From Mizuhopecten yessoensis (Eukaryota), in contig NW_018404538.1 of assembly GCF_002113885.1 (NCBI RefSeq), forward strand, positions 185,306-249,305: a stretch of 64,000 nucleotides of DNA. Direction: 5' to 3'. Below, piece by piece: positions 36,501-61,815 of this stretch. The position numbers and the translations under genes were made by a program. How positions within the stretch are numbered: the first letter of the stretch is position 1; every line of letters starts with the position of its first letter. The notes beneath the pieces were generated by a model, which ran no database searches, was not told the origin of the DNA, and saw only the letters and a list, made by a program, of their open reading frames with translations.

Positions 36501-37165
36501 CTGTTATAGTATTTATATATATATATATAACAATGTCACTTGAGTAGCATTACGTACAGGGTCTGTTATGGTATTTATATATATATATAACAATGTCACT
36601 TGAGTACCATTATGTACAGGGTCTTTTATAGTATTTGTATATAAATAACAATGTCACTTGAGAACCATTATGTACAGGGTCTGTTATAGTATTTGTATAT
36701 ATATAACAATGTCACTTGAGTAGCATTACGTACAGGGTCTGTTATGGTATTTATATATATATATAACAATGTCACTTGAGTACCATTATGTACAGGGTCT
36801 GTTATAGTATTTGTATATATATATAACAATGTCACTTGAATATCATAATGTACAGGGTCTGTTATAGTATTTGTATATGCATAACAATGTCACTTGAGTA
36901 CCATTATGTACAGGGTCTGTTATAGCATTTGTATATATATTACAATGCCACGTGAGTACCATTACGTACAGGGTCTGTGATAGTATTTGAATATAAATAA
37001 CAATGTCACTTGAGTACCATTATGTACAGGGTCTGTTATAGTATTTGTATATATATTACAATGCCACTTGAGTACCATTACGTACAGGGTCTGTTATAGT
37101 ATTTGTATATATTTAACAATGTCACTTGAGTACCTGTGATAGTATTTGTATATATATAGCAATGT
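33548..37165. repeat. 58-bp minisatellite, ~60 copies, homogeneous core
   Basis: Unit AACAATGTCACTTGAGTACCATTATGTACAGGGTCTGTTATAGTATTTGTATATATAT. Confidence 0.95.
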
Positions 37166-37169
37166 CACA

Positions 37170-37329
37170 AGACTTCCAACTGGAAAGGGGAGCCGAATGT
37201 GACCTAGTGGTGATACGCAACAAAAAGGGAGAGATCTACTCAAAAAGTTATCTTAATGACATCAGGCAAGGTTTGCGGCGGCATTTACAAGACCCATCAT
37301 GTGACAGAGATTTCGACATTCCTTTATGA
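37170..37329 (+). pseudogene. Fragment of a Crypton-like tyrosine-recombinase (DUF3504/KCTD1/ZMYM-related) coding sequence
   Basis: IRNKKGEIYSKSYLNDIRQGLRRHLQDPSCDRDFDI resembles the RxxxGexYxxxSLxxIRxgLxRhLxxP..R.fDI block of these proteins (recognition by eye). Confidence 0.55.
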
Positions 37330-37859: not shown

Positions 37860-39330
37860 TTATATTCTTATACACTGTACAATGCTCTCCTACTCTAAGG
37901 ACACTACTAACTTACTGTAATATGATATAATATGTAAAGGACACTGCTAAAAACTATAGTAAGATCCGTTATGTTAATTAAGTACACTGCTAAATACTGT
38001 AATATGATCTTTTATGTCAAGTACACTGCTTAATTCTGTAATATGCTCTGTTATGTTCTTTTATGTTAAGTACACTGCTGCATACTGTAATATGATCCGT
38101 TATGTTAAGTACACTGCAAAATACTGCAATATGATCCGTTATGTTAAGTACACTGCAAAATACTGCAATATGATCCGTTATGTTAAGTACACTGGTAAAT
38201 AATGTACTATGATCCGTCATATTAAGTACACTGGTAAATAATGTACCATGATCCGTCATATTAAGTACACTGGTAAATAATGTACCATGATCCGTCATAT
38301 TAAGTACACTGATACGTAATGTAATATGATCCGTCATGTTAAGGACACTGTTAAATACTGTTATATGATCCGTTATGTTAAGTACACTGGTAAGTAATGT
38401 AATATGATCCGTTATGTTAAGTACACTGCTAGATACTTAAGCATTATACTGCATTCTGTTCCGTGTTATTGTCCTAAACATGGAACATGATTGCAGACAA
38501 AATATATAACGCGCGTTATGATTATTTGTCTGTAATCCTGTTCCGTGTTATAGGACCAGGGCTCACTTGTATAAAACATCTCAACTCTTGAGATTTCCTC
38601 AAGTCTAAGATTTCCCATAGACAATACATTGCTTGAGATTTTCCTTAACTTTGAGATGTTTTATACAAGTGGGCCCATATCATGGAATAGAATGCTGTTT
38701 TTTGCATATAAATACATTTTTCATTATTTTTTTAAACTTTCATTTCTAAGTTCACAACGCACTTTTAAATTCGAATATCGCGCTGTTGTCACGTGACTTT
38801 TCCCGTACAAAAATAAAGTTCGTAAAAGTAAACAAAAAAATATTTCCACAATTTAATCAATAAATATATATTCAATTCACATTTTATGATAGACTTACAT
38901 AAAACGGTGAATGTTACTGAATCATACTGAGATTGTTTGCTTATCCGCTTGCTAGTGCGGATGGGAATAGCTATCTGGTAGTTAGTCGGTTCCGTGGAGA
39001 TATCCACGGAACTTGCCTTGGTAGTGTTATATAGTGGCAGTGCAGAGCAATAGTAAATATTGTAATATGATCTTTAATGTTAAATACACTGCTCAATACT
39101 GTAATATGATCCGTTATGTTAAGTACACTGATAAATACTGTTACATGATCCGATATGTTAAGAACCCTGCTAAATACTGTAAAACGATCCGTTCTGTTAA
39201 GGACACTGCTAAAAACTGTAGTATGATCTGTTATGTTCTTTTATGTTAAGTACACTGCTTAATATCGTACTATGATCAGCTATTTTAAGGACACTGCTTA
39301 TTATTGTAATATGAACTTTTATGTTAAGTT
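37860..39330. repeat. 39-bp minisatellite (TATGTTAAGTACACTGCAAAATACTGCAATATGATCCGT), interrupted at ~38437-39055
   Basis: 39-nt period on both sides of a ~620-bp insert. Confidence 0.9.
38559..38676. mobile_element. 118-bp MITE nested within a larger palindromic insert (~38437-39055)
   Basis: 26-bp TIRs GGGCTCACTTGTATAAAACATCTCAA / TTGAGATGTTTTATACAAGTGGGCCC with 1 mismatch. Confidence 0.8.
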
Positions 39331-39678: not shown

Positions 39679-40156
39679 TAATTAAAGGATTATGAAATGT
39701 TATTATCTTTACTGTTTTGATGCAGGTCGTATGAGGTTAAATTACCTATTGTGTTCTATTGATAAGCTGGACCGGTGAAAAGCTAATTTTTCATACTGCA
39801 AAACCTATTTGAAATCCAGACAGATATCACGAGCCGATGTAAGCTCTACAGAGACTTTATTTTACTGGATGAAAAAGAAAGACAAGCAAATCAGACAGGT
39901 ACTCAGAATCCATATGTCATGCACGTAATCTACAGTAGATGACAGACTTGTCATACTACACAACCTGATTGTACCTTGATTTCTTTTACCCGACGATGTC
40001 TATACATTTTTCAATAAATTAATTTACATAACCAGCATGTTTAACAAGCATTGATTATCTTAAAAATTGACAGTAGATCTTAATTAAAAACATAAATACC
40101 ATGTAAAATATTTTAGTTGCAAAAAGACAGAAATTTATTCCGTGTTTGCGGGGATA

Positions 40157-42555
40157 TATTACAACGCTTTTGTTGTGTTGTTGTGTTGTTGGTACCTGTA
40201 AAATTACAATGGAGACAGCCTGATAAATTTGATGTGTCTTTATTCTGGTCGCAGCTTCAAGTGGTTATATACAGACAATAATACATAGAAATTCTTGTTA
40301 TTGATATACATTATCAATCATGAATTAAACCACGCATTGGATTTAATTTACAATACAATGAACATCTAATGTAGAAACAAATAATAATAGAAACATACAT
40401 AGGAAATTTTTGTTATTGATATGAAATATCAATCGCGAATTAAACCACACTTTGGGTTTAATTACAGTACAATAAAAATCCTAATGTAGAAAAATAATAA
40501 ACAAAAATGGGGAAAATTAGCTAAGTTAAAACTGGGGAGAATTAACTAAGTAGAGCTACTCTTGCTTGGCAGTGAGGGGTCGATGTCTAATTAGGAATAA
40601 CTCGAGCAGCAGGGACCCAGCATAAACAATATAATAATATGTTAAAGTTTTTTTATGCAGAAAAACTTAATTAACCAATACACATTATAATTAACAATTA
40701 ATCGAGTATGGCAAAATAAAAATATACAAAACAAATTTAATCTTGATAAGGGAGGAAAGCTATTAACATGAATTTAATTTAGAGAATATTATGGTTCTAG
40801 TTAAGAATAAAATATTCAAAACAATTTAAATCTAGACAGTGTACAAAGAAGCAGGGAACCTACCACACGTGTATTTGTTTACATGGGAAAGCCCACTTCT
40901 TGTCTGCATTGGTAACTTCCGGTTTTGGAATGGACTTCCGGTTTATGGAAATTAACTGAATGAAAGTTCCAAGAGGGATGATTACAATTGCTGACTTACG
41001 AAATGATAAATAAAAACTCTGTTCTAAAAATTGTTCTTACAAACTTGTCTAATTTAAGTTAACGATGGGTATGGTGTTGATTAAAAAGTTGTTTGGACAT
41101 ATGAGGTAAATAATTCCAGAAACTCTTGAGTCATATAAAATGCAAACAATACTTTCCGCACAATTCTCAAACATGGTATTGAAATAATATATCAGGTAAC
41201 ATTTGGCGAGACAAGTATATAAAAATCATATGCATAACATCAACAAGTTACTTACTCTTTCTTGAGCATTGTGAGACGGGTAAATATACATTTCAAAATC
41301 ATGATGGTCCGTTAGGTAAAAGCACACACACGTGTTTATTTTCTTTTGCAAAGCGGAGGTTAAGAATTCAGAAGGGAACGTAACTCTATTCTAGTGCTCT
41401 GAACAATTTGGCCCACAAGTGCGGTAACAATACCAAAATCTTTGATAATTATAAGTTAAATACAAATAATAAGTTACAGCTTAAGGTAACGATTTCTTTT
41501 TAGCTTGCGTATATAAAATCTTTATAAAACTTCGTTCCTCAAAAATGTAAAGCCTTTGTTAAAGAAAAATATAATGTTTATGCTCCAAATTAGATTATTT
41601 TGGAGCATCTTAAATCTAATTTTTGCCTATCCAAACTTAATAGAATTCTACCGTACTTGAATTAAATCTGAAGGTCGAAAAGATTACAAGTGGGAAAACT
41701 ACAAATTCTGTGTCTCACACGTTACTTGGAATAAGATGTTATATTGCATTATAAACATAAAAAGGGTATAACACTAATAAACACAGAATAATTTCATACA
41801 AATGAATATGAATAAATTCAGTATACAAGAATTAAAATATAAAAATACATGTAAAAAGAATTGCTCACCTGTAAAATTACAATGGAGACAGCCTGATAAA
41901 TTTGATGTGTCTTTATTCTGGTCGTAGCTTCAAGTGGTTAGCTGTACAAGCGACAGGTAACTTACTCAGATGCCCCCAATGTTGGTGAGGTTCCAGGAGG
42001 GTTATTTACAGTATTTTCTATATGAAGTATAGGTAATTTACCTTTGAGGGGCCTCAACAAAAACATATATCCAGTCGGACCTTATTGCTGATTGGTCGGA
42101 TCTTAGCGTGGGTTCGGACAAAGAAATTTGTGAAAAACACCAATCTGGAAGTAAGGTTACGTAAGAGCACCCAAGTCCTAATTGACTCTAACACGGCCGA
42201 TAATTCTTTTACAAAGAGACAAAGATAGAGTCGGGACCGGACGTGAGTTCTTAATTGAAATGACAAAAGGGATTATGAGAATCTAACAGAGTCGCCGAAC
42301 CGAACAAATAATCTAAATGTGGGAAACGTAAATCTTGTTTGCCAAACTGTTTTAGAGCTCAATTAACGTGGCTAAGTATGTGGTTATTGTATTATTTGGG
42401 GATTATTGTTTGTAAAATGTTTTACGAAAATATTCCAAATAGTAAAAAGATTACGAAAATAATCCAAATAGTAAAAAGTTCCAAAATTTCATTGCAATAA
42501 ACAAGTTTATGTATTTTTATGTAAGTTATGAAAAATGTAAAATATCAGTATGATA
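40157..42555 (-). repeat. 3' LTR (~2.4 kb)
   Basis: Matches 51320-51797 and 52965-54433 with only a handful of visible differences. Termini TATCATA...TGTAATA on the minus strand. Confidence 0.88.
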
Positions 42556-42574
42556 TATCCCTCCTGGTTGGGAG
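42556..42574 (-). promoter_or_regulatory. Polypurine-tract region
   Basis: Minus strand ...GAGGACAAAGATTTCTCCCAACCAGGAGGGATA immediately precedes the 3' LTR. Confidence 0.6.
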
Positions 42575-42995: not shown

Positions 42996-45215
42996 TCAAC
43001 TCAAAACTTGGAAGTACCCTTGATGGGTTAATATGAAGTAGGCAGCATATGGGTGCCTCAGTAGTTTTGCAATGCGCCGGGTTTGAAAGAGGGAGATATT
43101 AATGGTGTTGTTAGGGTAGATTACTTGTTTAGTGTGATTATTTATTATAGAAAACTGATCCCACTCAATATGAAGAGACCTTAAGACTCGACCTCTGAGT
43201 GTCGAGTTGTACACATGGTCAGTGATGGTAGGCAGGGTTGTTAAGTCAGGTAGTGCACTATAATGAAAACTGGGTACATCTGGTGGGATGGTTAGTGCAG
43301 AAGATTTTTGTGCTAATAATAAAGTAGCTGAAAGGCGACGAAATTTTCTTAATATCCAAATAAATAATGCAATTGCTAACCATGCCGAAGCTGTGGCAAG
43401 TAAAGCTATAATTCCGCTAGTGTCTGGCCAATTGCTGGAGGTAAATGCTAGCTGACCATCTATAATAGATTCTGATAATGTTTGAAATACTTTTTCGCCT
43501 TGTTTTGTTTTCTTAGCTATACGTTCAAGACTGAGATGGTACTGGTTGTCATTTGCCAAAGTTTGAGAAAAAGAGTGATTATAAATGTCGATATTTGGAA
43601 TTTTAATTTGAATTGATTTTCCATAATTAGTGTCTCCAAATATGGAGGCGTGATTTTCAGGGTTGAAAAAATGTTGAATCAATGCCAAATTGACAGGATG
43701 TAGTATGGTGATCTCTCCGGTGTCATTTTGACCTGGACCAAGTCTGGGTGGGAGATACAAATTATCTGAAGTGACCGAACATCTTGATGGTACACGTATT
43801 ACACAAAAATTACAACCTTTCATCATTTTCTGTCCAGACCGGCAGTCTAATGCTAACATTTTGGTGCGATACATCATTAAGGTTGAAGGTGAAAGTTCAA
43901 TAATGCTAGTTTTAAGTGTGTTTGGTACAAAACGGAAATCGCAAAAAGATTTCACTTGAGACTTTTGATTATAAAAAATTGAAGAATAACATGAACCAGA
44001 TGCTACAGAATTTAAAGCTACATGAAAAGGACAATACATAATGTCTTGTCCTGTACACTGACTCAGTTGGGTATGTGAAAGAACTGAAAAATGCTGATTA
44101 TCACTGGTATGTACAAAATAATCTGGAGTGTCTAATAATTGGGTGGCATGAGTTGATGTGGTGTTAATTGGCACTGGATAAGAGTAAACTTTGTATAGTG
44201 ATAAAGGTTGAACAAAAGATGATATAGGAATCTTCAACAAGATGTACAAATTAGAACTGTGTCTAGCATATAAAAAATTAGCAAATGAGTAATAATGTAT
44301 TGGATCAAAATGGATAATGTTTGTACCTGGATATCTTGTAGATAATATGTTCTGGACTTGTTTGAGTGTAGATATAATAGTCTGAGGTGACAAAATAAAG
44401 GGGGACAACTTGCCTTTAGCAAAATCATGAATTGCTAGCTGTACATGTTCTAAATGTTTTTCTAAAACTGCACTAGAGTTGATTTGTTTTAACATCCTAT
44501 TTTCTAGCAATATATACTCATGTTGCATTCCATCCATAGCACTAGAAAATTGTTGGGCTAAAGTAACAGATTCGTCATGATTGTCACGTACTGCCTTGAT
44601 AACATTGTCAAATCGTTCATTGACAGTAGATACAAATGATGTTAACTGATGGGCTTCCTGAGTCATGGCTTTGGCAAGTTTAATATTGTCATTGTTCATT
44701 GCTTGCATATGTTGTTTTAAGTTGTCAACATCACTTGATGTTGCTGTACCAAACAATGATTTAGAGACATCACCGATGAAGTCCATCAAACCTCGCTTGG
44801 ATCTTCTTGAACCAAATTTTAATGTATTTGGAAAGTAAGAATGAGGGATCAGGCGATGGATTTTTGTGACTGTGGAGTTTATACTAGCCATACATTGCAT
44901 TCTTAAAGCATTCAATGTTTTCAACACAACGTTTGCAGGTTCACATTGTTGACGTCTACACTGAAGACTTCCTGGGAGGTGTATTTTAGCTGGGAGTGTT
45001 ATTTCAAAGGTGTGGGACCAATATTCTTGGCCAAGATGTAATTTTGCAGTTGGATCAAACAAAATTCCATAGTTCAGTCTTTGAACTAGTGAAGGTTCAT
45101 TATCGCAGGCCGCAAAGGGGAGAATCAGAAGGGTCATCACAGCAAGGAAGCTCCACACAGGAGGAAGTCCAAAGATACCTAATAAGAAGCAGACAGATAG
45201 AATAAGATTTAGCAT
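42996..45215 (-). CDS. env: Envelope glycoprotein, class I fusion protein of baculovirus-F/errantivirus type
   Basis: Open ORF (first ATG 45215, 739 aa). Hydrophobic signal, furin site RRSKR, fusion peptide GLMDFIGDVSKSLFGTAT, heptad region, Cys-rich domain, TM GIIALLATASAWLAIALFIWIL, N-glycosylation sequons. Confidence 0.88.
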   Translation of the reverse strand: MLNLILSVCFLLGIFGLPPVWSFLAVMTLLILPFAACDNEPSLVQRLNYGILFDPTAKLHLGQEYWSHTFEITLPAKIHLPGSLQCRRQQCEPANVVLKTLNALRMQCMASINSTVTKIHRLIPHSYFPNTLKFGSRRSKRGLMDFIGDVSKSLFGTATSSDVDNLKQHMQAMNNDNIKLAKAMTQEAHQLTSFVSTVNERFDNVIKAVRDNHDESVTLAQQFSSAMDGMQHEYILLENRMLKQINSSAVLEKHLEHVQLAIHDFAKGKLSPFILSPQTIISTLKQVQNILSTRYPGTNIIHFDPIHYYSFANFLYARHSSNLYILLKIPISSFVQPLSLYKVYSYPVPINTTSTHATQLLDTPDYFVHTSDNQHFSVLSHTQLSQCTGQDIMYCPFHVALNSVASGSCYSSIFYNQKSQVKSFCDFRFVPNTLKTSIIELSPSTLMMYRTKMLALDCRSGQKMMKGCNFCVIRVPSRCSVTSDNLYLPPRLGPGQNDTGEITILHPVNLALIQHFFNPENHASIFGDTNYGKSIQIKIPNIDIYNHSFSQTLANDNQYHLSLERIAKKTKQGEKVFQTLSESIIDGQLAFTSSNWPDTSGIIALLATASAWLAIALFIWILRKFRRLSATLLLAQKSSALTIPPDVPSFHYSALPDLTTLPTITDHVYNSTLRGRVLRSLHIEWDQFSIINNHTKQVIYPNNTINISLFQTRRIAKLLRHPYAAYFILTHQGYFQVLS

Positions 45216-45388
45216 TTTGTATGCCGTTATGAGATGTTGCAATCACCTCAAAGCACTAAATAAACAGAATTACATCTTTTTAAATCTTAGCATTCAATGC
45301 ATTTAGAGAGAAAAAGTAGAAAGGAAGAAATAGAGAAAAAAAAATACCAGTAAAAGATACCAATGAGTTTACCTTCCCTGTGAATGTT

Positions 45389-48300
45389 TTATTGCCGTGA
45401 GAAAAATGTCAGTTTTGATTGCTTACCCTTTTTACGAGCTTTCCCTGTTTGCGTTTTTGTGATATGAAATTCGCGAACCATCGCTGGAGGTAGGTTTTCT
45501 ACAGGCTCCCAGGTTCGGACAGAATGACCAAGCCATTTCACACGAAATTCTTTGACTCCATTGCGAAACTTATACTTGATAAGTTTTTCAATTGGATAAG
45601 ACTGCTGGTCATCCTGAGAAGGGGAAGGGTTGTTTGGAGTTGATTTGATTGGTTGGGTAGGGATGGATTGGTCTGAATTATCAGCGTTTGGGGTGGGTTG
45701 CTTGGACTGTGCTGAACTATCAGCACATGGGGTGGGTTGGTTGGACTGTGCTGAATTATCAGCGATTGGGGATGGTTGGGTTTGGGTCTTTTGGTTGCGG
45801 TTGGTTGGTCCGGCTGGTCTCTTTTGAAATTGAACTTGCTGATTACCTGGGACATTAGCAATGTTGGGTGGACATGTTGGTGGATTTAAATTAGGCCTGT
45901 TGTCTGGGTTTGTATACAGTTTCAATCGATTTGCATGTATAAGAGATTTGATCTCCTTATGCGTATTGCATCGTCGAAGCTTGTAGGTATGGTTTGAACC
46001 TATATCGACAATGTAATATGGTCCGTCCCAAGGATGGTGTAGTTTTGGTGACAAGCCTTGGGGTATTTTAGGTGAGTGAAGCATAACCAAGTCATGGATG
46101 TGGAATTCGGGAACTGACGCCTTTTTGTCATAATGTTGTTTTTGTTTGGCTCTGGCCTCAGTTATGTTTTTATTTGCAGTCTGTCGTACATATTTGAGGT
46201 GGTCTATGAGCTGGTTGACATGTGTTTTAGCATCTTTGCTTAAACCATCTTTTGGGATTAAGGCAGTGTCGAAGGGTAAATTCATTTCTTTGCCAAACAT
46301 TATGTGATAAGGCGATAGGTTGGATGCTTGTGTAGATGGTGACATTCTGAAAGCCATAAGAACACCTGGTAAGAACTGTGGCCAGTTTAGTTGATTTTTA
46401 TCAACGTATGCTCTCAAGCATTGGGCCAGGGTACTGTTCATGCGTTCACATGTGGAGTTGGTTTGTGGATGGTAGGAACTTGTGAAGTGTCTAGTCACTT
46501 GAAAAATTTCACATACAGCGGTTACAAGTTTACTCATGAAATTCTGTCCTCTATCACTGATAATTGTACTTGGGGCACCATATCTGGCAAATATTTCAGA
46601 GTACAAAACCTTGGCAATTTCTTTAGAATCTTGTGTTTTAAGAGGAAATGCTTCTGGCCATTTGTTGAAAGAGTCGACCACCAGAAGAATGTATTTGTAA
46701 CCCTCTTTTGTTGTCGTGATAGGTCCTAAAATGTCCATATGTAGTCGTGAGAATGTGTCACAGATAGGCATTGTTGTTAATGGTGCATGCTTCTTTTTTG
46801 CAGTCTTTTTTATCCGTTGACATGTGTCACATGACCTGATATAGTCTTCAGTAATCCGAAACATTTTAGGCCAATAATACTTCAGTTGTATGGCTTTGTA
46901 TGTCCTATCAAACCCTAAGTGTGCGCCGCCAGCTTGACAGTCATGGTAAGATCTGAGAACATCTTCTCTAAGACACCTAGGGACTGCAAGTTGACGAAGA
47001 GGAGTTTTCTGAGTATCTCTCTTAGGGGCGGGTATGTACAAGTGATATAGGGTATCATCTAGTAGAACATACTGACTGGAAAGAGATAATATTCTGACAG
47101 CTTGTGGCTTTGATGTAGGTAGATCTCCTGTAGCCAAGTAATTGTAGATATCCCTAAAGTCTGGACATTTAGATTGAAGTCTACCCACTGGTTCCGGAGT
47201 AACAGAATCTGAAACTTCTGTTACAGGTGCGCTTGGGGTTTGATTACTGTATATAAATGTGACTTGTTGAAATGAAGACTTTTTTTCGGGACCTACATAA
47301 GAAACTTCTGGATGGGGGTCTACTTCTTCTAATTCATCTTTTGTAGTGGTAGTCTGAACTGGGGGGTATGGTCGTCTGGAAAGGGCATCAGCCACTTCAT
47401 TTGTTTTACCTGCCTTATACAAGATTTCAAAGTCATAGCCTTGTAAGAGTACAGACCACCTGGCTAACCTACCTGTGGACTCTGGCTTTATATCTTTCAT
47501 CCATTTAAGAGCACTATGGTCAGTATATACTTTAAAACATGTTGATGCTAGGTACACATGATATTTTTTTATACCTTCAACAATTGCAAGGCCTTCTCTT
47601 TCGGAAATGGAGTATTTCCGTTCATGTTGGTTAAGGGAACGACCACCATAGGCAATAACACGTTCACGTTTGTTTGTGTCTAACTGACCCAATACATACT
47701 CAATGGCTTCACCTGATGCATCTGTTGTCAAAATGAATGGTTTAGTGTGATCTGGGTATGCTAGTACTGGTGGGGAGGTCAAAGCTTGTTTGAGCTGGTC
47801 AAATGACCCTGTACAGGACTGTGACCATTCAAACTTCACATCCTTTTGGAGTAGTTTGTTTAATGGAGATGCTATCTTGCTATAGTTTCTGACAAACTTC
47901 CTATAGTAATTACAGAGACCTCAGAAAGATCTTACCTGTTTTTGGGTTTTTGGGACAGGATATGAATCAACAGCATCTGTTTTAGATGTATCAACTTGAA
48001 CTCCATCTTTAGAGATCACATGACCTAGGTAATGTACCTTATGTCGAGCAAATGAACACTTGCTTGGTTTGAGTGTTAAGTGTGCCTGCCTTGGCCTATC
48101 GAAGATCTCTTGTAAGTTATTCAAATGAGTCTCGAATGTACGTGAGAAAACTAGAATATCATCAATGTACACAAGACAGGTTTTCCAATTCAAAACATTC
48201 AAAACTTTGCACATATGAGATTGGAAACTTGCCGGGGCATTCACAAGTCCAAACGGCATTCTTTTCCACTGATAGACTCCAGCAGGGGTCACAAATGCTG

Positions 48301-49696
48301 ATTTGTGAGCAGTTTCAGGGTCCATTGGGATTTGCCAGAAACCAGAGGCGAGGTCAAGTGTTGAAAAGTATTGAGCTTTGGATTCTCCAATAGAATCAAA
48401 TACATCTTCGAGACGGGGAAGGGGGAAAGTACATTGTTTGGTGACAGCGTTGAGTTTCCTGTAATCTACAGCAAAACGTAACTGCCCATCTTTCTTTTTC
48501 ACCATTACAACGGGGCTCTGCCACATTGACGTGGATTCTGTTATGATGTCATTTTCTAGCATTTCTTTTATCTGTCTTTCAGTTTCAGCCTTGACCTCAG
48601 GGTTTTGATGATAAAATCGTTGCCTGATGGGAAGTGCATCACTGGTTTCAATTTTATGTTTTTGCTGAGATGTATGACCTAATTCTGAAAGATCAGTGGC
48701 AAAAACATTTCTGTTTTGTTGAAGAAATCCTTGTAGGAGTAGTTTTTGATTTTCTGAAAGATCTGATTTGTCTAGGTCAAAAGAGATGTGATCATGATCA
48801 GATGTTATTGTACCTGAGGACAGTGATGATGAAGGTTTTGTATCAAGGGACGTGTCGAGAGACATGACAGTGTATTTATCAATGATTGATACCAAACCTA
48901 TCACTTTGCCAGGAAAGAGTACAACTTGTTTTTCTGATGGATTCATGACTTGAATAACACATGTTTGGTCTGGTTGGATGATGGAAACACATTTGGCTCC
49001 TACAAGTCCTAATGAAGGTAATTTAGGTAGTGGTTCAAAAAGTATTTGAGATTTTGGTGGTAGGTCTAATACTTTGACTTGTATATTGTTAACTGACAAT
49101 GGGGGTAGAATGTTTCGTGTAGTGTTCCTAGCCAAAGATACTTCTGTGTGGATAGACAGGATTTTGTTTGTATCAAGTTCTTTCAAAAACAAAGTTTTCT
49201 TTTTAATGTCAATGACTGCCTCATGTGTATTTAAAAAGTCTAGGCCTAAAATTAATGGAATATGAAAGTTTTCAAAAACATGAAAGTCAGCAGTGAAAAC
49301 ACAATCTCCAATCGTGACAGGAATGGTTATTTTACCCAGACTGCGATGTGACTCGCCTCCTGCAACCACTGCGGTTACAGCTGAACACTGTTTAATTTGT
49401 GTACATGTGTCTACCTTTAGTTTAGTCAACAAAGATAATGTAACACAGGAGATTGTAGCTCCAGTATCAACCAGCGCTTTTACTGGTGATTCATAAATCT
49501 CTACACTAACAGTGTTTCTATCTACGGGAGTTACAAGATTAACTATCTCTACTGGTTTGTCGGGTGAGTTGGGTTGGAGAGAATGGATGGGTGGCTGGGG
49601 TTTGGAGAATGTAGCGTTAATCTTGGGTCCTGTGATGGGTGGTACTGCACTAGTCTGGTGTTGCCTATCCATGCTGCCAGGGATAGGCGCGTATCC
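45389..49696 (-). CDS. pol: Pol polyprotein (protease, RT, RNase H, integrase, chromodomain), interrupted by one in-frame TGA at 47921-47923
   Basis: VDTGA, YIDD, TTDAS/EREGLA/YTDH, HHCC, LHMDILGP/SDRGQNF/CERMN and GPY motifs. VRSF*GLCNYYRKF has a stop replacing the conserved Leu; the two ORF pieces are in the same frame. Confidence 0.93.
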
Positions 49697-51291
49697 CTAG
49701 TGTCTATGAGGGTATTGTGCAGGGGCAGTAGAAGATTGGTGTTGGTTGGTGTTATTGGAGGGAGGTTGGTTAAATTTCTTTCTGCGGCATGCATCAGAAT
49801 TATGATGCCAAAGTTTACAAAATGAACATTGTGTATTATAAGCAGGACATAAAAAACGCCCTTGGCATGACTTACCACATCCCTGGCATGGCCTTCTGTT
49901 CTGGAATTGCTGTTGCTGTGGTTGGTGTTGGAATAGTTGCTGATGCTGGAATGGTTGCTGAGGCTGATACTGTTGGTGAGGCTGGAATGATGGCTGAGGC
50001 TGAAATGGTTGCTGAGGTTGGTACTGTTGCTGGGACTGGTATGTTGGCTGAGGCTGGAATGATTGCTGGTACTGCTGCTGAGGCTCAAAAGATTGCCGTT
50101 GACGATGTTGAGCAGAAGTTTGTTGCTTTGAGTTGTTGTTGTGGAGTTGTTTCGCCGCAATGACTGACACCTCTTCTTTAACACCCTCTATCTGGCTTAC
50201 AATTTGGGTTTGCAATTTTGAAACCAGTTCGTCGCAAAACTTGGTCATTGAAATCATACTGACACTGTCTGGATCTGTGGTGCATGAGATCTCTTCCTTC
50301 GCTAAGTCGACAGCATGATGAAGGTCCAGAAAGGATTTTGGTTCCTTTCCCAGCACTTTGGAACGGAATTTGGGTTGAATCCATTTAATGCTACCTGGAC
50401 TTTGTAGCTCTCTGCTATGGTGTGTCCTAAAGCCAATTTTTCAGCCCTTTCTAGAAACTTTTCCACACTCTCGTCACTTTCTTGTTTCAATGAAAAAAAC
50501 TTATTGTCTGTCGATTTTTGTCCAAATGGGTTTAAGAATGATTCTTTGAATTTGGTCAGGTCTAATTTTTCATGCTCTGGTATTCCTTGCAGCCAAAGCG
50601 CTGCAGCACCATCCATGTTGAATGACATTGCTGCCAGTGTCCTGTCATTTGTTACATTGTGGAACTTTTGCCAGGCTTGTAGGTTGGCCAGCCATAGCAC
50701 AGGTGAATCTGTTACATTATATTTTTTTAAGTTTATTCCACCGGTCGCCATTTCTGAATGGATATCTTGTAGATTGTCCTGTGGTGGTGGTGGTGGAGGT
50801 AATTCTATATTGTCTTCTATTGTTTGATTATGTATTTGTTGTGTCAGGAGTAACACCTCGTGCTCAAGCTGTCTTATCTGGTCTAAATGTGTTTGCTGTT
50901 GTTCTGGTAGCTGTTCCTGTTGCTGGGGTGGTGGTGGTGGTGTCTGTTCAGGCTGATGTGGTGGTTCCGGTTGTTGTGGTAGTCCTGGTTGTTGTTGTTG
51001 TTCTGGTTGCTGTTGTTGTTCCGGTTGCTGTTGTTGTTCCGGTTGCTGTTCTGGTTGCTGTGGTGGTTCCGGTTGTTGTTCCTGTTGCTGTTCTGGTTGT
51101 TGTTCCGGTTGCTGTTGTTGTTCGGGTTGTTGTTGTTGTTCCAGTTGTTGTTCTGGCTGCTGTTGTTGTTCTGGCTGCTGTTGTTGTTCTGGTTGTTGTT
51201 GTTGTTGTTGTTGTTTAGGTAGGTCCCTAGTTGCTGCACGAGTCTTGGCGGTGTAGTTTATTGGCACTGTCACTTTGTTTTTTCCTGTCAT
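49697..51291 (-). CDS. gag: Gag with Q/P/E-rich N-terminus, capsid-like core and Cys/His knuckles; -1 frame break at ~50370
   Basis: ORF 51291-50302 joins ORF 50356-49697 as ...NGFNP/KFRSKVLGKEPKSF. Contains CQGCGKSC...CPA...CSFCKLWHHNSDAC. Confidence 0.85.
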
Positions 51292-51300
51292 CGAGGATCT

Positions 51301-51316
51301 TGGGGACTCTCCACCA
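51301..51316 (-). promoter_or_regulatory. Primer-binding site, probably tRNA-Ala
   Basis: TGGTGGAGA(GTCCCCA) 3 nt inside the 5' LTR, complementary to the ...UCUCCACCA 3' end of eukaryotic tRNA-Ala. Confidence 0.7.
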
Positions 51317-52352
51317 ATTTATTACAACGCTTTTGTTGTGTTGTTGTGTTGTTGGTACCTGTAAAATTACAATGGAGACAGCCTGATAAATTTGATGTGT
51401 CTTTATTCTGGTCGCAGCTTCAAGTGGTTACATACAGACAATAATACATAGAAATTCTTGTTATTGATATACATTATCAATCATGAATTAAACCACGCAT
51501 TGGATTTAATTTACAATACAATGAACATCTAATGTAGAAACAAATAATAATAGAAACATACATAGGAAATTTTTGTTATTGATATGAAATATAAATCGCG
51601 AATTAAACCACACTTTGGGTTTAATTACAGTACAATAAAAATCCTAATGTAGAAAAATAATAAACAAAAATGGGGAAAATTAGCTAAGTTAAAACTGGGG
51701 AGAATTAACTAAGTAGAGCTACTCTTGCTTGGCAGTGAGGGGTCGATGTCTAATTAGGAATAACTCGAGCAGCAGGGACCCAGCATAAACAATATANNNN
51801 NNNNNNNNNNNNNNNNNNNNNNNNNNNNNNNNNNNNNNNNNNNNNNNNNNNNNNNNNNNNNNNNNNNNNNNNNNNNNNNNNNNNNNNNNNNNNNNNNNNN
51901 NNNNNNNNNNNNNNNNNNNNNNNNNNNNNNNNNNNNNNNNNNNNNNNNNNNNNNNNNNNNNNNNNNNNNNNNNNNNNNNNNNNNNNNNNNNNNNNNNNNN
52001 NNNNNNNNNNNNNNNNNNNNNNNNNNNNNNNNNNNNNNNNNNNNNNNNNNNNNNNNNNNNNNNNNNNNNNNNNNNNNNNNNNNNNNNNNNNNNNNNNNNN
52101 NNNNNNAAAGTTCCATCCTGTTACCAATACCATTAAAGATTTTAACAAGAAAAATAAAAAATAAATAGATTAACTTATTCTTGTGATAAAATATCAATTC
52201 TAATTAATTTCACATATTATTGTTTCAAAAGCACTGGTCGAACGGCACTGTACAGATTCTGGAAATAGGGATCACCGAAACGAGAGCTAAATAAATCACG
52301 TTGTTGTACACCTCCAGTCGAGGTAAATTGGATTATTTTAATCATTACCCAT

Positions 52353-52963
52353 TAGGAGTGAAACGATTCACCGCGATTATGGTGAACCGCGATTACTTGC
52401 TCCCGATTCGATTCTCGATTTTACAACTCTGATATTTCGATTCGATTCTTACAAATTCTGTCCGTGTTTGACTTTACATTTAGACGCACCCCTAGTCCTG
52501 TTAAAACGCAGATTTTGATTGGCCAACACACTTTGCGTAGGCCAATCAAATTGCGCGTTGCTGTTACTGCAAACTACTGCAAACATGGAGTACGAGTTAG
52601 CCGACCCGCCCGCATCATATAAATCTCCCGTGTGGAAACACTTTGGGTTTCCAATCGTCGACGGAAAAACGGAAAAAAATGTCACTATTTGCAAGATATG
52701 TTATTTAAAGATGTCATACAAAGCTGGCTCGACGACAGCAATGAACGCACATCTAAAACGTAAACACAATGTGGACTGTGATAAAGCTGCTTCGGTCAGT
52801 TCGGAGTCTTCCGCTAACAACGATCGTCGGTCTGAACAAAAACCAGAACATGTTGATATGCTCATTTTCCTAGCAAAAAACTTTGTAGTTTAAATGCATA
52901 TGTGTTTACTCTTTATTGCTTTAAGTGAAGTTATCACATTATAGTAATTCCAGTTGAACTTTC
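52353..52963 (+). mobile_element. Internally deleted hAT transposon (ZBED1/Ac-like); right end lost in the gap
   Basis: Starts TAGGAGTGAAACGATT with CGATT subterminal repeats and encodes a BED finger ORF. Confidence 0.7.
52585..52893 (+). CDS. 102-aa BED zinc-finger mini-protein fused to the hAT transposase C-terminal tail
   Basis: KSPVWKHFGF...CKIC...GSTTAMNAHLKRKH is a BED finger. KPEHVDMLIFLAKN is the end of the hATC dimerisation domain. Confidence 0.7.
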   Translation: MEYELADPPASYKSPVWKHFGFPIVDGKTEKNVTICKICYLKMSYKAGSTTAMNAHLKRKHNVDCDKAASVSSESSANNDRRSEQKPEHVDMLIFLAKNFVV

Positions 52964-55399
52964 NAAAAGTTGTTTGGACATATGAGGTAAATAATTCCAG
53001 AAACTCTTGAGTCATATAAAATGCAAACAATACTTTCCGCACAATTCTCAAACATGGTATTGAAATAATATATCAGGTAACATTTGGCGAGACAAGTATA
53101 TAAAAATCATATGCATAACATCAACAAGTTACTTACTCTTTCTTGAGCATTGTGAGACGGGTAAATATACATTTCAAAATCATGATGGTCCGTTAGGTAA
53201 AAGCACACACACGTGTTTATTTTCTTTTGCAAAGCGGAGGTTAAGAATTCAGAAGGGAACGTAACTCTATTCTAGTGCTCTGAACAATTTGGCCCACAAG
53301 TGCGGTAACAATACCAAAATCTTTGATAATTATAAGTTAAATACAAATAATAAGTTACAGCTTAAGGTAACGATTTCTTTTTAGCTTGCGTATATAAAAT
53401 CTTTATAAAACTTCGTTCCTCAAAAATGTAAAGCCTTTGTTAAAGAAAAATATAATGTTTATGCTCCAAATGAGATTATTTTGGAGCATCTTAAATCTAA
53501 TTTTTGCCTATCCAAACTTAATAGAATTCTACCGTACTTGAATTAAATCTGAAGGTCGAAAAGATAACAAGTGGGAAAACTACAAATTCTGTGTCTCACA
53601 CGTTACTTGGAATAAGATGTTATATTGCATTATAAACATAAAAAGGGTATAACACTAATAAACACAGAATAATTTCATACAAATGAATATGAATAAATTC
53701 AGTATACAAGAATTAAAATATAAAAATACATGTAAAAAGAATTGCTCACCTGTAAAATTACAATGGAGACAGCCTGATAAATTTGATGTGTCTTTATTCT
53801 GGTCGTAGCTTCAAGTGGTTAGCTGTACAAGCGACAGGTAACTTACTCAGATGCCCCCAATGTTGGTGAGGTTCCAGGAGGGTTATTTACAGTATTTTCT
53901 ATATGAAGTATAGGTAATTTACCTTTGAGGGGCCTCAACAAAAACATATATCCAGTCGGACCTTATTGCTGATTGGTCGGATCTTAGCGTGGGTTCGGAC
54001 AAAGAAATTTGTGAAAAACACCAATCTGGAAGTAAGGTTACGTAAGAGCACCCAAGTCCTAATTGACTCTAACACGGCCGATAATTCTTTTACAAAGAGA
54101 CAAAGATAGAGTCGGGACCGGACGTGAGTTCTTAATTGAAATGACAAAAGGGATTATGAGAATCTAACAGAGTCGCCGAACCGAACAAATAATCTAAATG
54201 TGGGAAACGTAAATCTTGTTTGCCAAACTGTTTTAGAGCTCAATTAACGTGGCTAAGTATGTGGTTATTTAATTTGGGGATTATTGTTTGTAAAATGTTT
54301 TACGAAAATATTCCAAATAGTAAAAAGATTACGAAAATAATCCAAATAGTAAAAAGTTCCAAAATTTCATTGCAATAAACAAGTTTATGTATTTTTATGT
54401 AAGTTATGAAAAATGTAAAATATCAGTATGATATATCCCTCCTGGTTGGGAGCATTCGGCAAGTGTTACTATCGATGAGGGACTCGCCGACGACCTGGGA
54501 CGATTTCACCAGCTTCTCCACTTGCAACGGACGCTAGTGTAGATTCTAGAAGACAGTGAATTATTCTGTTCTGTTGAAAAGGACCTGTTATAGATCAGGT
54601 GTTCATTAAAAATGTTTGTGGCTGGAGTTAAGACACGATGTAATTTAGACGCGGACTTAAATTTCTTTAAACAGGGTGATTACATGTTGATAATATCAGA
54701 AAAAGGATTATTAAAATGTATTTACATGCATTTTAACCGTTGATAGACAATCTCGATTTGTTTTGGTTTGGTTGTGTGCGTGTGTGTGTGTGTGTGTTGA
54801 TGGGGTAAAAAAAGGGGGGGGGGGGTTCAGAGGTCATGTAACGGTACATGTAGTACTGTTGATATTACTACACACTTGCTTTTATTGAATCATGCAAACA
54901 TTTTGAGTTGGTACTATTATCTAGAGGCACTGCAACACGAATGTAAATAGTGTGGTATAGCTGCATAATATGTGGGTCGACTTTAGTAAATGTATTGTCA
55001 ACACTACTATGACGTGTGTTAACAGTGACGTCACAGTCGTGTAACAACATGTTGTGAGCGTCAATTCATCCTTTCACAAACAGCAAAATACGTATGACTG
55101 GGTACATATATACGGACTTATCAGTATCAACTGATGTCATTTTGAAGGTAAGGACAAATAACCAAGCGCAAGTACTACATTGAAACAATTTTCAGTTCGA
55201 TAAAATGAAAATATCAAAATTATATGTGGGACATCGAAGGATTTCATCAGTAACATCGACTTTTAACAAAAATGTAGAATTGTTTCGGACATTCCCGTAC
55301 TTTCAGTACATGTGTTGCTATAACGGCTCGTACCGGTGTGAGATTTCCTTGTCTCACCCTAGGGTTGAGACGGGGATTCCCCTATTTTTTTCGCAAATG

Positions 55400-56394: not shown

Positions 56395-56422
56395 TGATGT
56401 ATTGCATTTGGATCATTCGGCA

Positions 56423-59319
56423 CACCTAGCGGGTTTTATGGGATTTGCCAGAGGCCACTTGTAATCATATCAACAATAATTACATCCAGACAACCAGTTA
56501 TTGTTTCAGTGAGTAAGATAGGGGAATCTCAACCCTCGGGGAAGGATTCGACAAAGCCTCGTGTGTGACAACTAAAGAAACTCCCCCCTCGGGTTGAGAT
56601 TCCCCTATCTCCTCCCCAAGGGGTTCAGACATTCTATAATTATTTCAACACTTTCATGAATCTATTAACTTGTCATAAATTCAATGCGTCAAGTGGTTTC
56701 TCTCCTTTTTTGGGTTCATTGACTATATAAACTGCCCTCCTAAAATAGAGGACGTCTTCCAGACCTCTTCCTACTACTACATGGGGACTGTTTCTCTGAT
56801 AAAATAGAGGACGTCTTCAAGACCACTTCCTTTACCTACATGAGGACTGTTTCTCCGATGAAATAGAGGACGTCTTCCAGACCTCTTCCTACTACTACAT
56901 TCCCCGGGGACTCTTTCCCTGATAAAATAGAGGACGTCTTCCGAACTTCTTCCTTCTACTACATGGGGACTGTTGCCCTGATAAAATAGAGGACGTCTTC
57001 CGAACTTCTTCCTACTACTACATAGGTCTGTTTTCCTGATAAAATGAGGATTTCTTTGAGACTTCTTCCTTCCTCTTTATGGGGACTGTTTCCCTAATTA
57101 AATAGAGGACATCTTCCAGACCTCTTTCTACAACTACATGGATACTGTTTCCCTGATCAGATAGAGGACGTCTTCAATACCTCCTCCTTTACCTACGTAC
57201 CTCTTCCTTTACCTATATGAGGACTGTTTTTCTGATAAAATAGAGGACGTCTTCCAGACCTCTTCCTACTACCACATGGGGACTGTTTCCCTGATAAAAT
57301 AGAGGACGTCTTCAAGACCACTTCCTTTACCTACATGAGGACTGTTTCTCTGATAAAATAGAGGACGTCTTCCAGACCTCTTCCTACTACTACATGATGA
57401 CTGTTTCCCTGATAAAATAGAGGACGTCTTCAAGACCACTTCCTTTACCTACATGAGGACTGTTTCTCCGAATAAATAGAAGACATCTTCCAGACCTCTT
57501 CCTACTACTACATGAGGACTGTGTCTCTGACAAAATAGAAGACGTCTTCCAGACCTCTTCCTTCTACTACATGAGGACTGTTTCTCTGGCAAAATAGAAG
57601 ACGTCTTCCAGACCTCTTCATTCTACTACATGAGGACTGTTCCCCTGACAAAATAGAGGACGTCTTCCAGACCTCTTCCTACTACTACATGAGGACTGTT
57701 TCCCTGACAAAATAGAGGACATCTTCCAGACCTCTTCCTTCTACTACATGAGGACTGTTTCTCTGACAAAATAGAAGACGTCTTCCAGACCTCTTCATTC
57801 GACTACATGAGGACGGTTCCCCTGACAAAATAGAGGACGTCTTCCAGACCTCTTCCTCCTACCACATGGGGACTGTTTCCCTGATAAAATAGAGGACTTC
57901 TTCAAGACAACTTCCTTTACCTACATGAGGCCCGTTTCTCTGATAAAATAGAAGACTGCTTCCAGACCTCTTCCTACTATCACATGGGGACTGTTTCCCT
58001 GATAAAATAGAGGACATCTTCAAGACCACTTCCTTTACCTAAATGAGGACTGTTTCTCCGAATAAATAGAAGACGTCTTCCAGACCTCTTTCTACTACCA
58101 CATGGGGATTGTTTCCCTGATAAAAAAGAGGACGTCTATGAAATAGAGGACGTCTTCCATACCTCTTCCTACTACCACATGCGGACTGTTTCTCTGATAA
58201 AACAGAGGACGACTTCCAGACCTCTTCCTACATGGGGACTGTTTCTCTGATAAAACAGAGGACGACTTCCAGACCTCTTCCTACACCTACATGAGGACTG
58301 TTCCTCCGAATAAATAGAAGACGTCTTCCAGCCTACTACTACATTCCCCGGGGACTCTTTCCCTGATAAAATAGAGGACTTCTTCAAGACAACTTCCTTT
58401 ACCTACATGAGGATTGTTTCTCTGATAAAACAGAGGACGTCTTCCAGACCTGTTCCTACTACCACATGGGGACTGTTTCCCTGATAAAATAGAGGACATC
58501 TTCAAGACCACTTCCTTTACATACATGAGGACTGTTTCTCCGAATAAATAGAACTTCCAGACCTCTTCCTACTACTACATGATGACTGTTTCCCTTATAA
58601 AATAGAGGACGTCTTCAAGATCACTTCCTTTACCTACAGGAGAAGACGTCTTCCAGACCTCTTTCTACTACCACATGGGGACTGGTTCCCTGATAAAATA
58701 GAGGACATCTTCAAGACCACTTCCTTTACATACATGAGGACTGTTTCTCCGAATAAATAGAACTTCCAGACCTCTTCCTACTATCACATGGGGACTGTTT
58801 CCCTGATAAAAAAGAGGACGTCTATGAAATAGAGGACGTCTTCCATACCTCTTCCTACTACCACATGCGGACTGTTTCTCTGATAAAATAGAAGACGTCT
58901 TCCAGCCTACTACTACATTCCCCGGGGACTCTTTCCCTGATAAAATAGAGGACGGCTTCACGATCACCTGCTTTACCTACATGAGGACTGTTTCTCCGAA
59001 TAAATAGAAGACGTCTTCCAGACCTCTTCCTTTTACTACATGAGGACTGTTCACCTGACAAAATAGAGGACGTCTCCAAGACTCTTCCTACTCCTGCATG
59101 TATACATAATTTTCATTGGTGTTATTGGTGGTCAGCGCATCAGAGGCACGGCAACAAAATTGAATTCTAAAATTTTGAATTTTGTCAGTTTACATACAGA
59201 AATGTATGTCTTAAAAAAGATAAATATGTAAATATTAAAAATACCTGGTTGTCTGGATGTAATTATTGTTGATATAATTACAAGTGGCCTCTGGCAAATC
59301 CCATAAAACCCGCTAAGTG
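56423..59319. mobile_element. TIR element (75-bp TIRs) carrying an internal 59-bp tandem array
   Basis: 56423-56497 is the reverse complement of 59245-59319. Internal array at ~56735-59098. Confidence 0.8.
56735..59098. repeat. 59-bp minisatellite (AAAATAGAGGACGTCTTCCAGACCTCTTCCTACTACTACATGGGGACTGTTTCTCTGAT), ~40 units
   Basis: 59-nt period (56742, 56801). Confidence 0.95.
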
Positions 59320-59342
59320 GCCTCTGGCAAATCCCATAAAAC

Positions 59343-60154
59343 CCTAGCGGGTTTTATGGGATTTGCCAGAGGCCACTTGTAATTATATCAACAATAATTA
59401 CATCCAGACAACCAGTTATGGTTTAAGTGGGTAAGATAGGGGAACCTCAACCCTCGGGGAAGGATTCGACAAAGCCTCGTGTGTGACAACATAAGAAACT
59501 TCCCCCTCGGGTTGAGATTCCCCCATCTCGTCCCCAAGGGGTTCAGACATTCTATTATTCTTTCCACACTTTCATGAATCCATTAAATTGTCATAAATTC
59601 AATGCGTCAAGTGGTTTGTCTCCTTTTTTGGGTTCACTGACTAGATACACTGCCCTCCTAAAATAGAGGACGTCTTCCAGACCTCTTCCTACTACTACAT
59701 GGGGACTGTTTCTCTGATAAAATAGAGGACGTCTTCAAGACCACTTCCTTTACCTACATGAGGACCGTTTCTCTGATAAAATAGAAGACGTCTTCCAGAC
59801 CTCTTCCTACTACTACATTAGGACTGTGTCTCTGACAAAATAGAGGACGTCTTCCAGACCTCTTCCTACTACTACATTAGGACTGTGTCTCTGACAAAAT
59901 AGAGGACGTCTTCCAGACCTCTTCCTTCTACTACATGAGGACTGTTGCTCTGACAAAATAGAGGACGTCTTCCAGACCTCTTCCTACTACTACATTAGGA
60001 CTGTGTCTCTGACAAAATAGAGGACGTCTTCCAGACCTCTTCCTTCTACTACATGTATACATAATTTTCATTGGTGTTATTGGTGGTCAGCGCATCAGAG
60101 GCACGGCAACAAAATTGAATTCTAAAATTTTGAATTTTGTCAGTTTACATACAG
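59343..60154. mobile_element. Second, tandem, 3'-truncated copy of the same TIR element with only ~7 repeat units
   Basis: Repeats the 56425-56735 leader, a short array (59653-60053) and the post-array sequence. Confidence 0.8.
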
Positions 60155-60794
60155 CCTACCTCCGATCAATAACGCCCACAAAGCATATGCAAAGTCGGTC
60201 CAATAGAACTTGAGTCAGAGTTGTAATTGCCTGAGCTCATTAGAGGTAACGGTGGTTATCTTAAATGCCGAAAATAGTCAGTAATTCGACGTAAAGTTTA
60301 CTACCTATCAAATACTCCCACGAAGCATAAATTAAGGCCGCCAAATACAGAATCGGAAGTGTATGTGTTATTCAGATGCCGATGTGAATCTTAAATCTAC
60401 ATGTATCCTGGTTCTGAATGAGACTTGGATCTCAATTTCGGATACGGATTACGACTCCGTTTCCAAAGAATAGGACATATATACATGTCTCTTATTTCCA
60501 TTTTTTCTTAAATACAAGAACAATAGCAAACAGCACATCTGGCTTGTTCTCACTAGAGACACATGGCTGAAAACCAGGGAAAAAACACGTGACTTGATTT
60601 ATCTGTTGTGATACACCTGTTCTGCGTCTTGTGAATGGAAGATGCAATCTTCTTTCAAAAGTTATTAAAAAATATCTGCAAGTCCGATCAATTAATCAAA
60701 AACGATATTGATAAAACAATAATGGAACAAAAGTCAACATATTGAATATTAATTAAAGGAGTCGTGTTCGAAAACTTGCAAACCTGGAGTTACC

Positions 60795-61265
60795 AAATAG
60801 TCTGGGCAAATAGTCGGGCAAATAGTCTGGGCAAATAGTCTGGGCAGATAGTCGGACAAATAGTCTGGGCAAATAGTCGGGCAAATAGTATGGGCAAATA
60901 GTAGGGCAAATAGTCTGGGCAAATAGTCGGGCAAATAGTCTGGGCAAATAGTCGGGCAAATAGTCTGGGCAAATAGTCGGGCAAATAGTCTGGGCAAATA
61001 GTCGGGCAAATAGTCTGGGCAAATAGTCGGGCAAATAGTCTGGGCAAATAGTCGGGCAAATAGTCTGGGCAAATAGTCGGGCAAATAGTCTGGGCAAATA
61101 GTCGGGCAAATAGTCTGGGCAAATAGTCGGGCAAATAGTCTGGGCAAATAGTCGGGCAAATAGTCTGGGCAAATAGTCGGGCAAATAGTCTGGGCAAATA
61201 GTCGGGCAAATAGTCTGGGCAAATAGTCGGGCAAATAGTCTGGGCAAATAGTCGGGCAAATAGTC
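60795..61265. repeat. 25-bp (12+13) tandem repeat GGGCAAATAGTC-TGGGCAAATAGTC
   Basis: Near-perfect alternation of the two subunits. Confidence 0.97.
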
Positions 61266-61815
61266 AATCTCATTTCAGGAAGGGATTGAATAAGTTGGAT
61301 GCATGTTTTGTCCAATATCAAATTTTCAGTGAAATGTTTTATTCGATGGTGAAAGCAAACAACCATTTAAAACATGACACGTCAGATAATGTAAAATGTA
61401 AATAACGAGTGACGACATTTTGCCGTCCTGTTGAGCGTGTGTGTAGGACTGTACATCGAACCGGGCATCAGAGATAACGGCTAGTAATTATCTGGTGGAC
61501 CCTTACCGTGTATTTTTTTCAGTTTTTCGTTTAATTTTCAAAAATCGTTTAGTTGTTCTCTTTTTGTGTGTATTTTTTGGATTATCGTTTATATTTGACG
61601 AGTCACCGTTTATTGTTTAAACCACGGAATTAGATTAGAGGGAAAGGCAACTGCCTCTTCGGCATAGTAAATATGTGCCGTGTACTTGATGTTGCGAGAA
61701 ACTACGAGAAAGCGAGAGAATTTACGTGATCCGGGGAAAAAACCGCCGCTTCAAACATCGAAGAAATTGATTGCCGTTTAGAAGTAATATATTTTGGGCT
61801 ATCTCTACCGTTACA

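Follow-up and report, generated by a model that had tools for sequence, protein, structure and literature searches.

Stop codons that separate gag from pol in one reading frame are already known from MuLV, from the fission-yeast elements Tj1 and Tosmo1-3 and from Tca2 of Candida albicans. Statements on this literature refer to the available portions of the cited texts, unless a whole text is named. The stop of Tj1 is described there as being required for transposition (PMC4600332, 10.1101/2022.12.06.519325), and a yeast reporter showed no readthrough at the local junction of Tca2 (PMC2194720). Among viral signals, UAG-GGR is found in tombusvirids and UAG-GGG-UAC in rice stripe necrosis virus, and simple stems follow spacers of 8-9 nt in alphaviruses and plant viruses (PMC3159437). 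A 2003 survey of gag-pol recoding, as related in PMC5009743, placed pol in the -1 frame in 28 of 51 animal elements. The preliminary description of the locus considered here had set it against the frameshifts and fused ORFs of most Ty3/gypsy elements; the locus is less unique than this contrast implied, as in-frame gag stops are known in Tj1 and Tosmo.

The locus lies in a 64,000-nt stretch of Mizuhopecten yessoensis DNA (contig NW_018404538.1), referred to as the window, and its features are collected in Table 1. The element is a Ty3/gypsy gag-pol-env retrotransposon with an F-type env. Its Pfam domains and homologues are of Ty3/gypsy type, gag is followed by domains in the order PR-RT-RNase H-integrase, and two LTRs (with approximate ends), a primer-binding site and a polypurine tract are present, all as in Metaviridae. 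The F-type env lies downstream of the integrase, and env matches were also found at loci L046, L048, L049, L113 and L116. The best named homologues come from Pinctada (60%), Haliotis and Mytilus. The chromodomain (PF00385) in the pol of the window is a weak match (E 1e-4, 22.6 bits against a cut-off of 25.1), and the same domain is listed for many close homologues. The two pieces of the 5' LTR share 99.4% and 99.7% identity with the 3' LTR, and the LTR has a few relatives. The primer of the TGGTGGAG site may be tRNA-Ala; a tRNA search for it gave no match.

Table 1 Features of the element, in window positions
Feature	Position	Strand	Basis
5' LTR, two pieces flanking an assembly gap plus BED-finger fragment	51317..54452	-	LTR comparison
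Primer-binding site TGGTGGAG..., common to relatives	51302..51316	-	sequence comparison
gag, 5' part, with Gln-rich repeat; Retrotrans_gag PF03732, E 5e-6	50302..51318	-	ORFs, Pfam
gag, 3' part, with CCHC knuckle, in a frame unlike that of the 5' part	49697..50440	-	ORFs
UAG stop of gag, pol following in frame	49697..49699	-	sequence, ORFs; kept across the clade
Alternative 9-bp hairpin over the UAG, competing for the 5' arm	49677..49700	-	folding; strong here, weak in most relatives
8-nt spacer GGATACGC = GGAUACGC	49689..49696	-	sequence, family alignment
Stem, 5' arm GCCTATCC	49681..49688	-	folding, family alignment
10-nt loop	49671..49680	-	without conserved pseudoknot partner
Stem, 3' arm GGATAGGC	49663..49670	-	folding, covariation
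pol, protease and RT, ending at a premature TGA (47923-47921)	47921..49696	-	ORFs, Pfam
pol, RNase H, integrase and weak chromodomain match	45389..47920	-	ORFs, Pfam
env, F-type; Baculo_F PF12259, E 2e-16; RRSKR furin-like site	42996..45242	-	ORFs, Pfam
Polypurine-tract-like stretch ahead of the 3' LTR	42559..42569	-	sequence
3' LTR, ends approximate	40154..42574	-	LTR comparison

Several further observations concern the surroundings of these features. Positions 52107-52963, within the 5' LTR, hold a fragment of a BED zinc finger (PF02892, E 3e-10); it is bordered by a single N on one side and by a gap of 310 N on the other, and either an insertion of hAT type or an artefact of scaffolding may account for it. 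A polypurine-tract-like 16-mer precedes both LTRs (54452-54437 and 42574-42559), and a 74-nt direct repeat lies within the LTR (40194-40267 and 41867-41940). The element is flanked by tandem arrays at 35000-37250, 37900-39330, 56400-60160 and 60730-61350, with units of 58, 39, 59 and 25 nt.

The gag frame is broken at about 50370-50440 and the premature TGA in pol is located at the end of RT, and the copy in the window is thus defective; both defects had been overlooked in the preliminary description. Contigs of two other samples carry gag without the indel and with the UAG kept, and one of them differs from the assembly inside the pol stop codon.

The junction itself reads CAC-TAG-GGA (49702-49694, minus strand), and the 247-codon ORF upstream of the stop is in frame with the 591-codon ORF downstream of it, so that gag and pol are indeed split by this stop alone. 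As in the MuLV type (type III) of signal, the UAG is followed by G, with gag and pol in frame, and a spacer of 8 nt precedes the structure, the stem of 8 bp beginning at +9. The arms, the 10-nt loop and their coordinates were found exactly as had been proposed. The stem-loop is the minimum free energy fold of +1 to +42 (-15.9 kcal/mol, z -2.9, with 1 of 200 shuffles equally good), and the z-score drops to -2.45, -1.2 and -0.7 on longer stretches. An uninterrupted helix of at least 8 bp from +9 follows 4 of the 90 TAG triplets of the element, including the gag stop, which leaves 3 of the 89 others. Five of the eight spacer nucleotides in the window are purines.

As a lone stop within a defective copy might have arisen by decay, the question is decided by the relatives. 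When the junction was searched for at the DNA level, the copy in the window was recovered along with short repeat matches, and no sister copy. An RT protein search yielded 150 scored matches, and 40 loci were examined. Six of these (L046-L050 and L053) contain gag-TAG-pol with the same downstream motif, the junction of two close relatives (L051 and L052) is missing through truncation, and the motif is absent from the remaining 32, which are distant. Further copies were added by motif and protease searches. In the scallop genome itself, 14 of the 16 readable clade junctions keep the TAG. The preliminary description had taken a sense codon in other copies as evidence against readthrough; such a codon (AAG) is present only in L301 and L305, which are decayed copies of one family; both have further stops or shifts of frame, and their stem is damaged or lost. 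These two copies share another difference and, judging from their sequences, may represent a sub-lineage that lost the stop.

Outside this genome, six TAG and two TGA junctions were found. Protein-based searches revealed TAG at L115, L116, L118 and L285 and TGA-C at L117 and L284, and a motif scan of metagenomes gave ten matches, two of which (L106 and L108) are gag-TAG-pol junctions, the other eight being chance matches with a helix of 2-5 bp from +9 and no pol. The contigs from the protein-based searches were binned with bacterial metagenomes and are likely host DNA. More generally, Ty3/gypsy elements, which are eukaryotic, were seen in many such bins (L113-L187, with titles such as Sedimenticola, Algimonas and Rubritalea), where they probably represent host contamination. 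A motif scan of viral contigs gave 39 matches, none with pol, and two gap-pattern matches in the scallop genome (L212 and L213) have no pol either. Three distant loci on viral contigs (L198, L200 and L202) have an in-frame stop near the knuckle and lack the motif; these stops may be due to decay. We also considered fused Gag-Pol proteins. Among the matches listed, 18 are long homologues (1700-1960 aa), all of them distant; the first protease motif starts within 81 residues in 15 of these 18 and further in for three (including P0112, at 152, and P0129, at 608, where the CCHC knuckle is absent).

In a midpoint-rooted tree of RT, built on 57 of 134 rows, none of them retroviral, the element falls within one clade of 17 rows (support 99/95), 11 of which have UAG, two UGA-C and four no junction. 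With the exception of L106, the members of this clade were found by protein homology, which is blind to the stop. The clade is likely from molluscs. The UAG is thus conserved in relatives: it holds one position in 12 families, after the gag zinc knuckle and ahead of the protease, and gag and pol are in frame at all readable, undecayed junctions. It should be noted that a sub-clade of 10-kb loci (L050, L053 and L287) has the same UAG signal and no match to the env of the window, and the signal therefore seems not to be tied to env.

These data bear directly on the explanation that decay produced the stop and that the hairpin formed by chance or has another role, such as packaging. The two other breaks in the copy of the window and the AAG of the two decayed copies would fit such an explanation, but the stop is held at one place across the 12 families, 11 of which were scored at 51-76% RT nucleotide identity, and the stem is kept at a fixed distance from it. 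Decay as the origin of the stop is largely refuted by this, and we regard the explanation as a whole as highly improbable. As far as sequence comparison can tell, the junction is inherited and not a decay mutation.

The stem was surveyed in 18 junctions representing the 12 families. Counted from +9, where the start of the stem is fixed, the helix runs without interruption for 8-11 bp in ten families and for 7 bp in another; in L115 it is broken after 4 bp and continues beyond an internal loop. Loops vary from 6 to 20 nt among family representatives, the 3' partner of the stem keeps a constant codon phase, and the outer pairs are mismatched in three decayed copies (L088, L090 and L094). In an alignment of the 12 families, in which the misaligned L097 was kept, 92.7% of cells are paired as against 25-48% in slid controls. 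Double-sided changes occur at four of the eight pairs, a level that was reached by 5 of 500 shuffles, although such shuffles ignore relatedness. RNAalifold predicts the same helix unaided. The GCCU of the 5' arm is invariant in 12/12 families, the first spacer codon is GGG or GGA and the second UAC or UGC in 10 of 11 each, and codon +4 is CCT in 11/11, whereas none of eight comparable four-fold RT columns, a small control, is invariant. The junction has no match in Rfam, and a covariance model recovered its own training sequences only, in two of three genomes. Taken together, clade-wide conservation and covariation support a junction of gag, UAG and pol that is inherited along with its 8-nt spacer and stem.

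The UGA-C of the sister lineage (L117:70 and L284:3428) is situated at the same junction, and the two elements pair in the RT tree with a support of 100/96. Their contexts, CGA-UGA-CGC-CAA-AGG in L284 and GCA-UGA-CAG in the other, are both of readthrough type, and that of L284 fits the xxA-stop-CGx-xxx-xxG motif in the consulted part of PMC3159437. L117 has a 5-bp stem at +12 and L284 no clear stem. The use of UAG-G and UGA-C at one site within one clade is what readthrough predicts, unlike splicing.

With splicing, the AG of UAG/G would be a 3' acceptor, the spliced RNA would encode either Pol or a shortened Gag-Pol, with the stem as a regulator of splicing. UAG/G does fit the YAG/G consensus in 12/12 UAG families, and this explanation is compatible with the raw RNA runs, in which 0 and 8 reads matched and none lay over the junction (the even depth of contig X1 suggests DNA and not expression). 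Yet a polypyrimidine tract is absent, with pyrimidines making up 0.12-0.53 of the 17 nt upstream, the in-frame UGA of the sister elements is no acceptor, and the gag/pol frame is kept in all readable, undecayed junctions. We therefore consider splicing very improbable.

The kept frame would be left unexplained if Pol were translated from an AUG past the stop, by reinitiation, from an internal entry site or from RNA of a promoter at the junction, as seen with the Tca2 reporter. In addition to this precedent, the loop in the window contains an in-frame AUG (codon +9). Still, in the stretch scanned, no in-frame AUG precedes the protease in 4 of the 12 families, and in the other eight the AUG is scattered from codon 8 to codon 56, which makes an AUG-dependent Pol very unlikely.

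The preliminary description had further suggested that the loop could form a pseudoknot with CCAG or GUGC downstream. This candidate was rejected: the best helix between loop and downstream sequence has 3-6 bp, a length that 10-100% of shuffles attain in each of the 18 junctions, the value for the window being 4 bp at best, with 85% of shuffles as good, and the CCAG option, as read from the sequence, leaves no first loop. By this comparison with shuffles, a compact pseudoknot of the MuLV type is not supported, and as no second stem is conserved, the predicted structure is a stem-loop.

The hairpin that excludes the main stem and overlaps the stop does exist, and is even longer (9 bp, -12.5 kcal/mol, compared with -12.7 for the bare main stem) than had been described. 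It is strong only in the copy of the window, ranging from -12.5 to +1.9 kcal/mol across families and being absent in L115. Of its cells 88.9% are paired, with no double-sided change relative to the commonest pair, and its covariation is not beyond that of shuffles. The role of a conserved switch that had been ascribed to it is thus unsupported. All but one of the 18 junctions could still form a 5-bp core, which might serve a switch but may only be a consequence of sequence conservation.

This hairpin is also what an editing mechanism would have to use. In hepatitis delta virus, A-to-I editing converts a UAG to UIG (Trp), and the same could happen here. The A of the stop is paired with a probability of 0.92 in the window, but this probability varies from 0.01 to 0.92 across the 12 families, duplexes that include the A extend to 7-12 bp at most, and the energies and covariation of the hairpin given above speak against a maintained substrate. 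Editing is accordingly an extremely unlikely explanation.

We thus consider programmed readthrough at the gag UAG, stimulated by the hairpin and giving Gag-Pol, to be the probable function of the junction, a reading that is drawn from sequence. Most ribosomes would halt at the UAG and release Gag, while the UAG-GGR context and the stem, positioned at the mRNA entry of the ribosome, would slow termination, such that a near-cognate tRNA could decode the UAG and a small share of ribosomes would go on to Gag-Pol, which the protease would later cut. The stimulator would be a plain stem-loop and not a pseudoknot, the sister lineage would use UGA-C instead of UAG, and the window would hold a defective copy that inherited the signal. 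A broader scenario, in which an old env-bearing clade of animal Ty3/gypsy elements independently evolved a MuLV-like readthrough geometry, swapped between UAG-G and UGA-C, uses the spacer as a decoy 3' arm and tunes Gag:Gag-Pol by a two-hairpin switch, seems to us rather doubtful.

If readthrough does occur, a widespread clade of invertebrate retroelements, some of them with env, would express its genes in this way, a point that a recent survey left unaddressed. The clade would also provide a natural series of readthrough signals (a fixed UAG-GGR-URY-GYG-CCU, variable loops and a UGA-C sister group), in which one can ask whether a plain stem at +9 is enough where MuLV needs a pseudoknot. Database Pol proteins of the clade (P0005, P0012, P0018, P0022, P0083 and others) often start with MPV..., MDGH... 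or MDR.... These starts match the AUG within the hairpin region, which hints that the signal is widespread, and readthrough would explain why such entries lack Gag and often begin at an AUG inside the hairpin.

In the open literature searched, the junction of this animal clade is not described, although the survey of Gao et al. (2003) may list animal cases. Term searches of a mollusc LTR survey, the Oikopleura Tor paper and the Troyka paper, and the whole text of the ICTV profile, gave no description of it. The closest animal elements are the 'ancient errantiviruses' of Cnidaria, Mollusca and Annelida (Chary and Hayashi, PMC13524379), which, in the portion considered, share the gag-pol-env order, the F-type env and, going by the weak match, the chromodomain-like integrase end; this likeness was judged by gene order and domains, as their sequences are outside our RT tree. 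The main text of that work contains no occurrence of readthrough, frameshift or pseudoknot, and its seven supplements none of readthrough or stop codon.

The fission-yeast elements Tj1, Tcry1 and Tosmo1-3 (PMC4600332, 10.1101/2022.12.06.519325) are Ty3/gypsy elements with a chromodomain and a conserved in-frame gag/pol stop, but they are fungal, have no env and present a GAA-UGA-CT context, a 3' structure being undescribed in the text available. Tca2 (PMC2194720) has the gag stop, the 8-nt spacer, a predicted structure and a loop AUG in common with our locus, but differs in its copia-type domain order and its UGA. By analogy of layout, its failure in the reporter is a warning for the junction of the clade. 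The plant virus and alphavirus signals, in the part of PMC3159437 considered, share the triplets after the stop, a spacer of 8-9 nt, a simple stem, a variable loop and compensatory changes, and the type II signals of VEEV and furoviruses, UGA-C with a stem, are matched by the UGA-C sister lineage; these are, however, unrelated RNA viruses, with stems that often enclose 100 nt or more. MuLV (PMC3159437, PMC2194720) has the same UAG-G between in-frame gag and pol, the same 8-nt spacer and a structure from +9. It differs in being a retrovirus and in using a pseudoknot instead of a stem-loop, while the spacer here is only partly purine-rich and the Ty3/gypsy signal is predicted from sequence. Readthrough as such is thus familiar among retroelements, and what appears to be new is a conserved junction of UAG and hairpin in an animal Ty3/gypsy clade.
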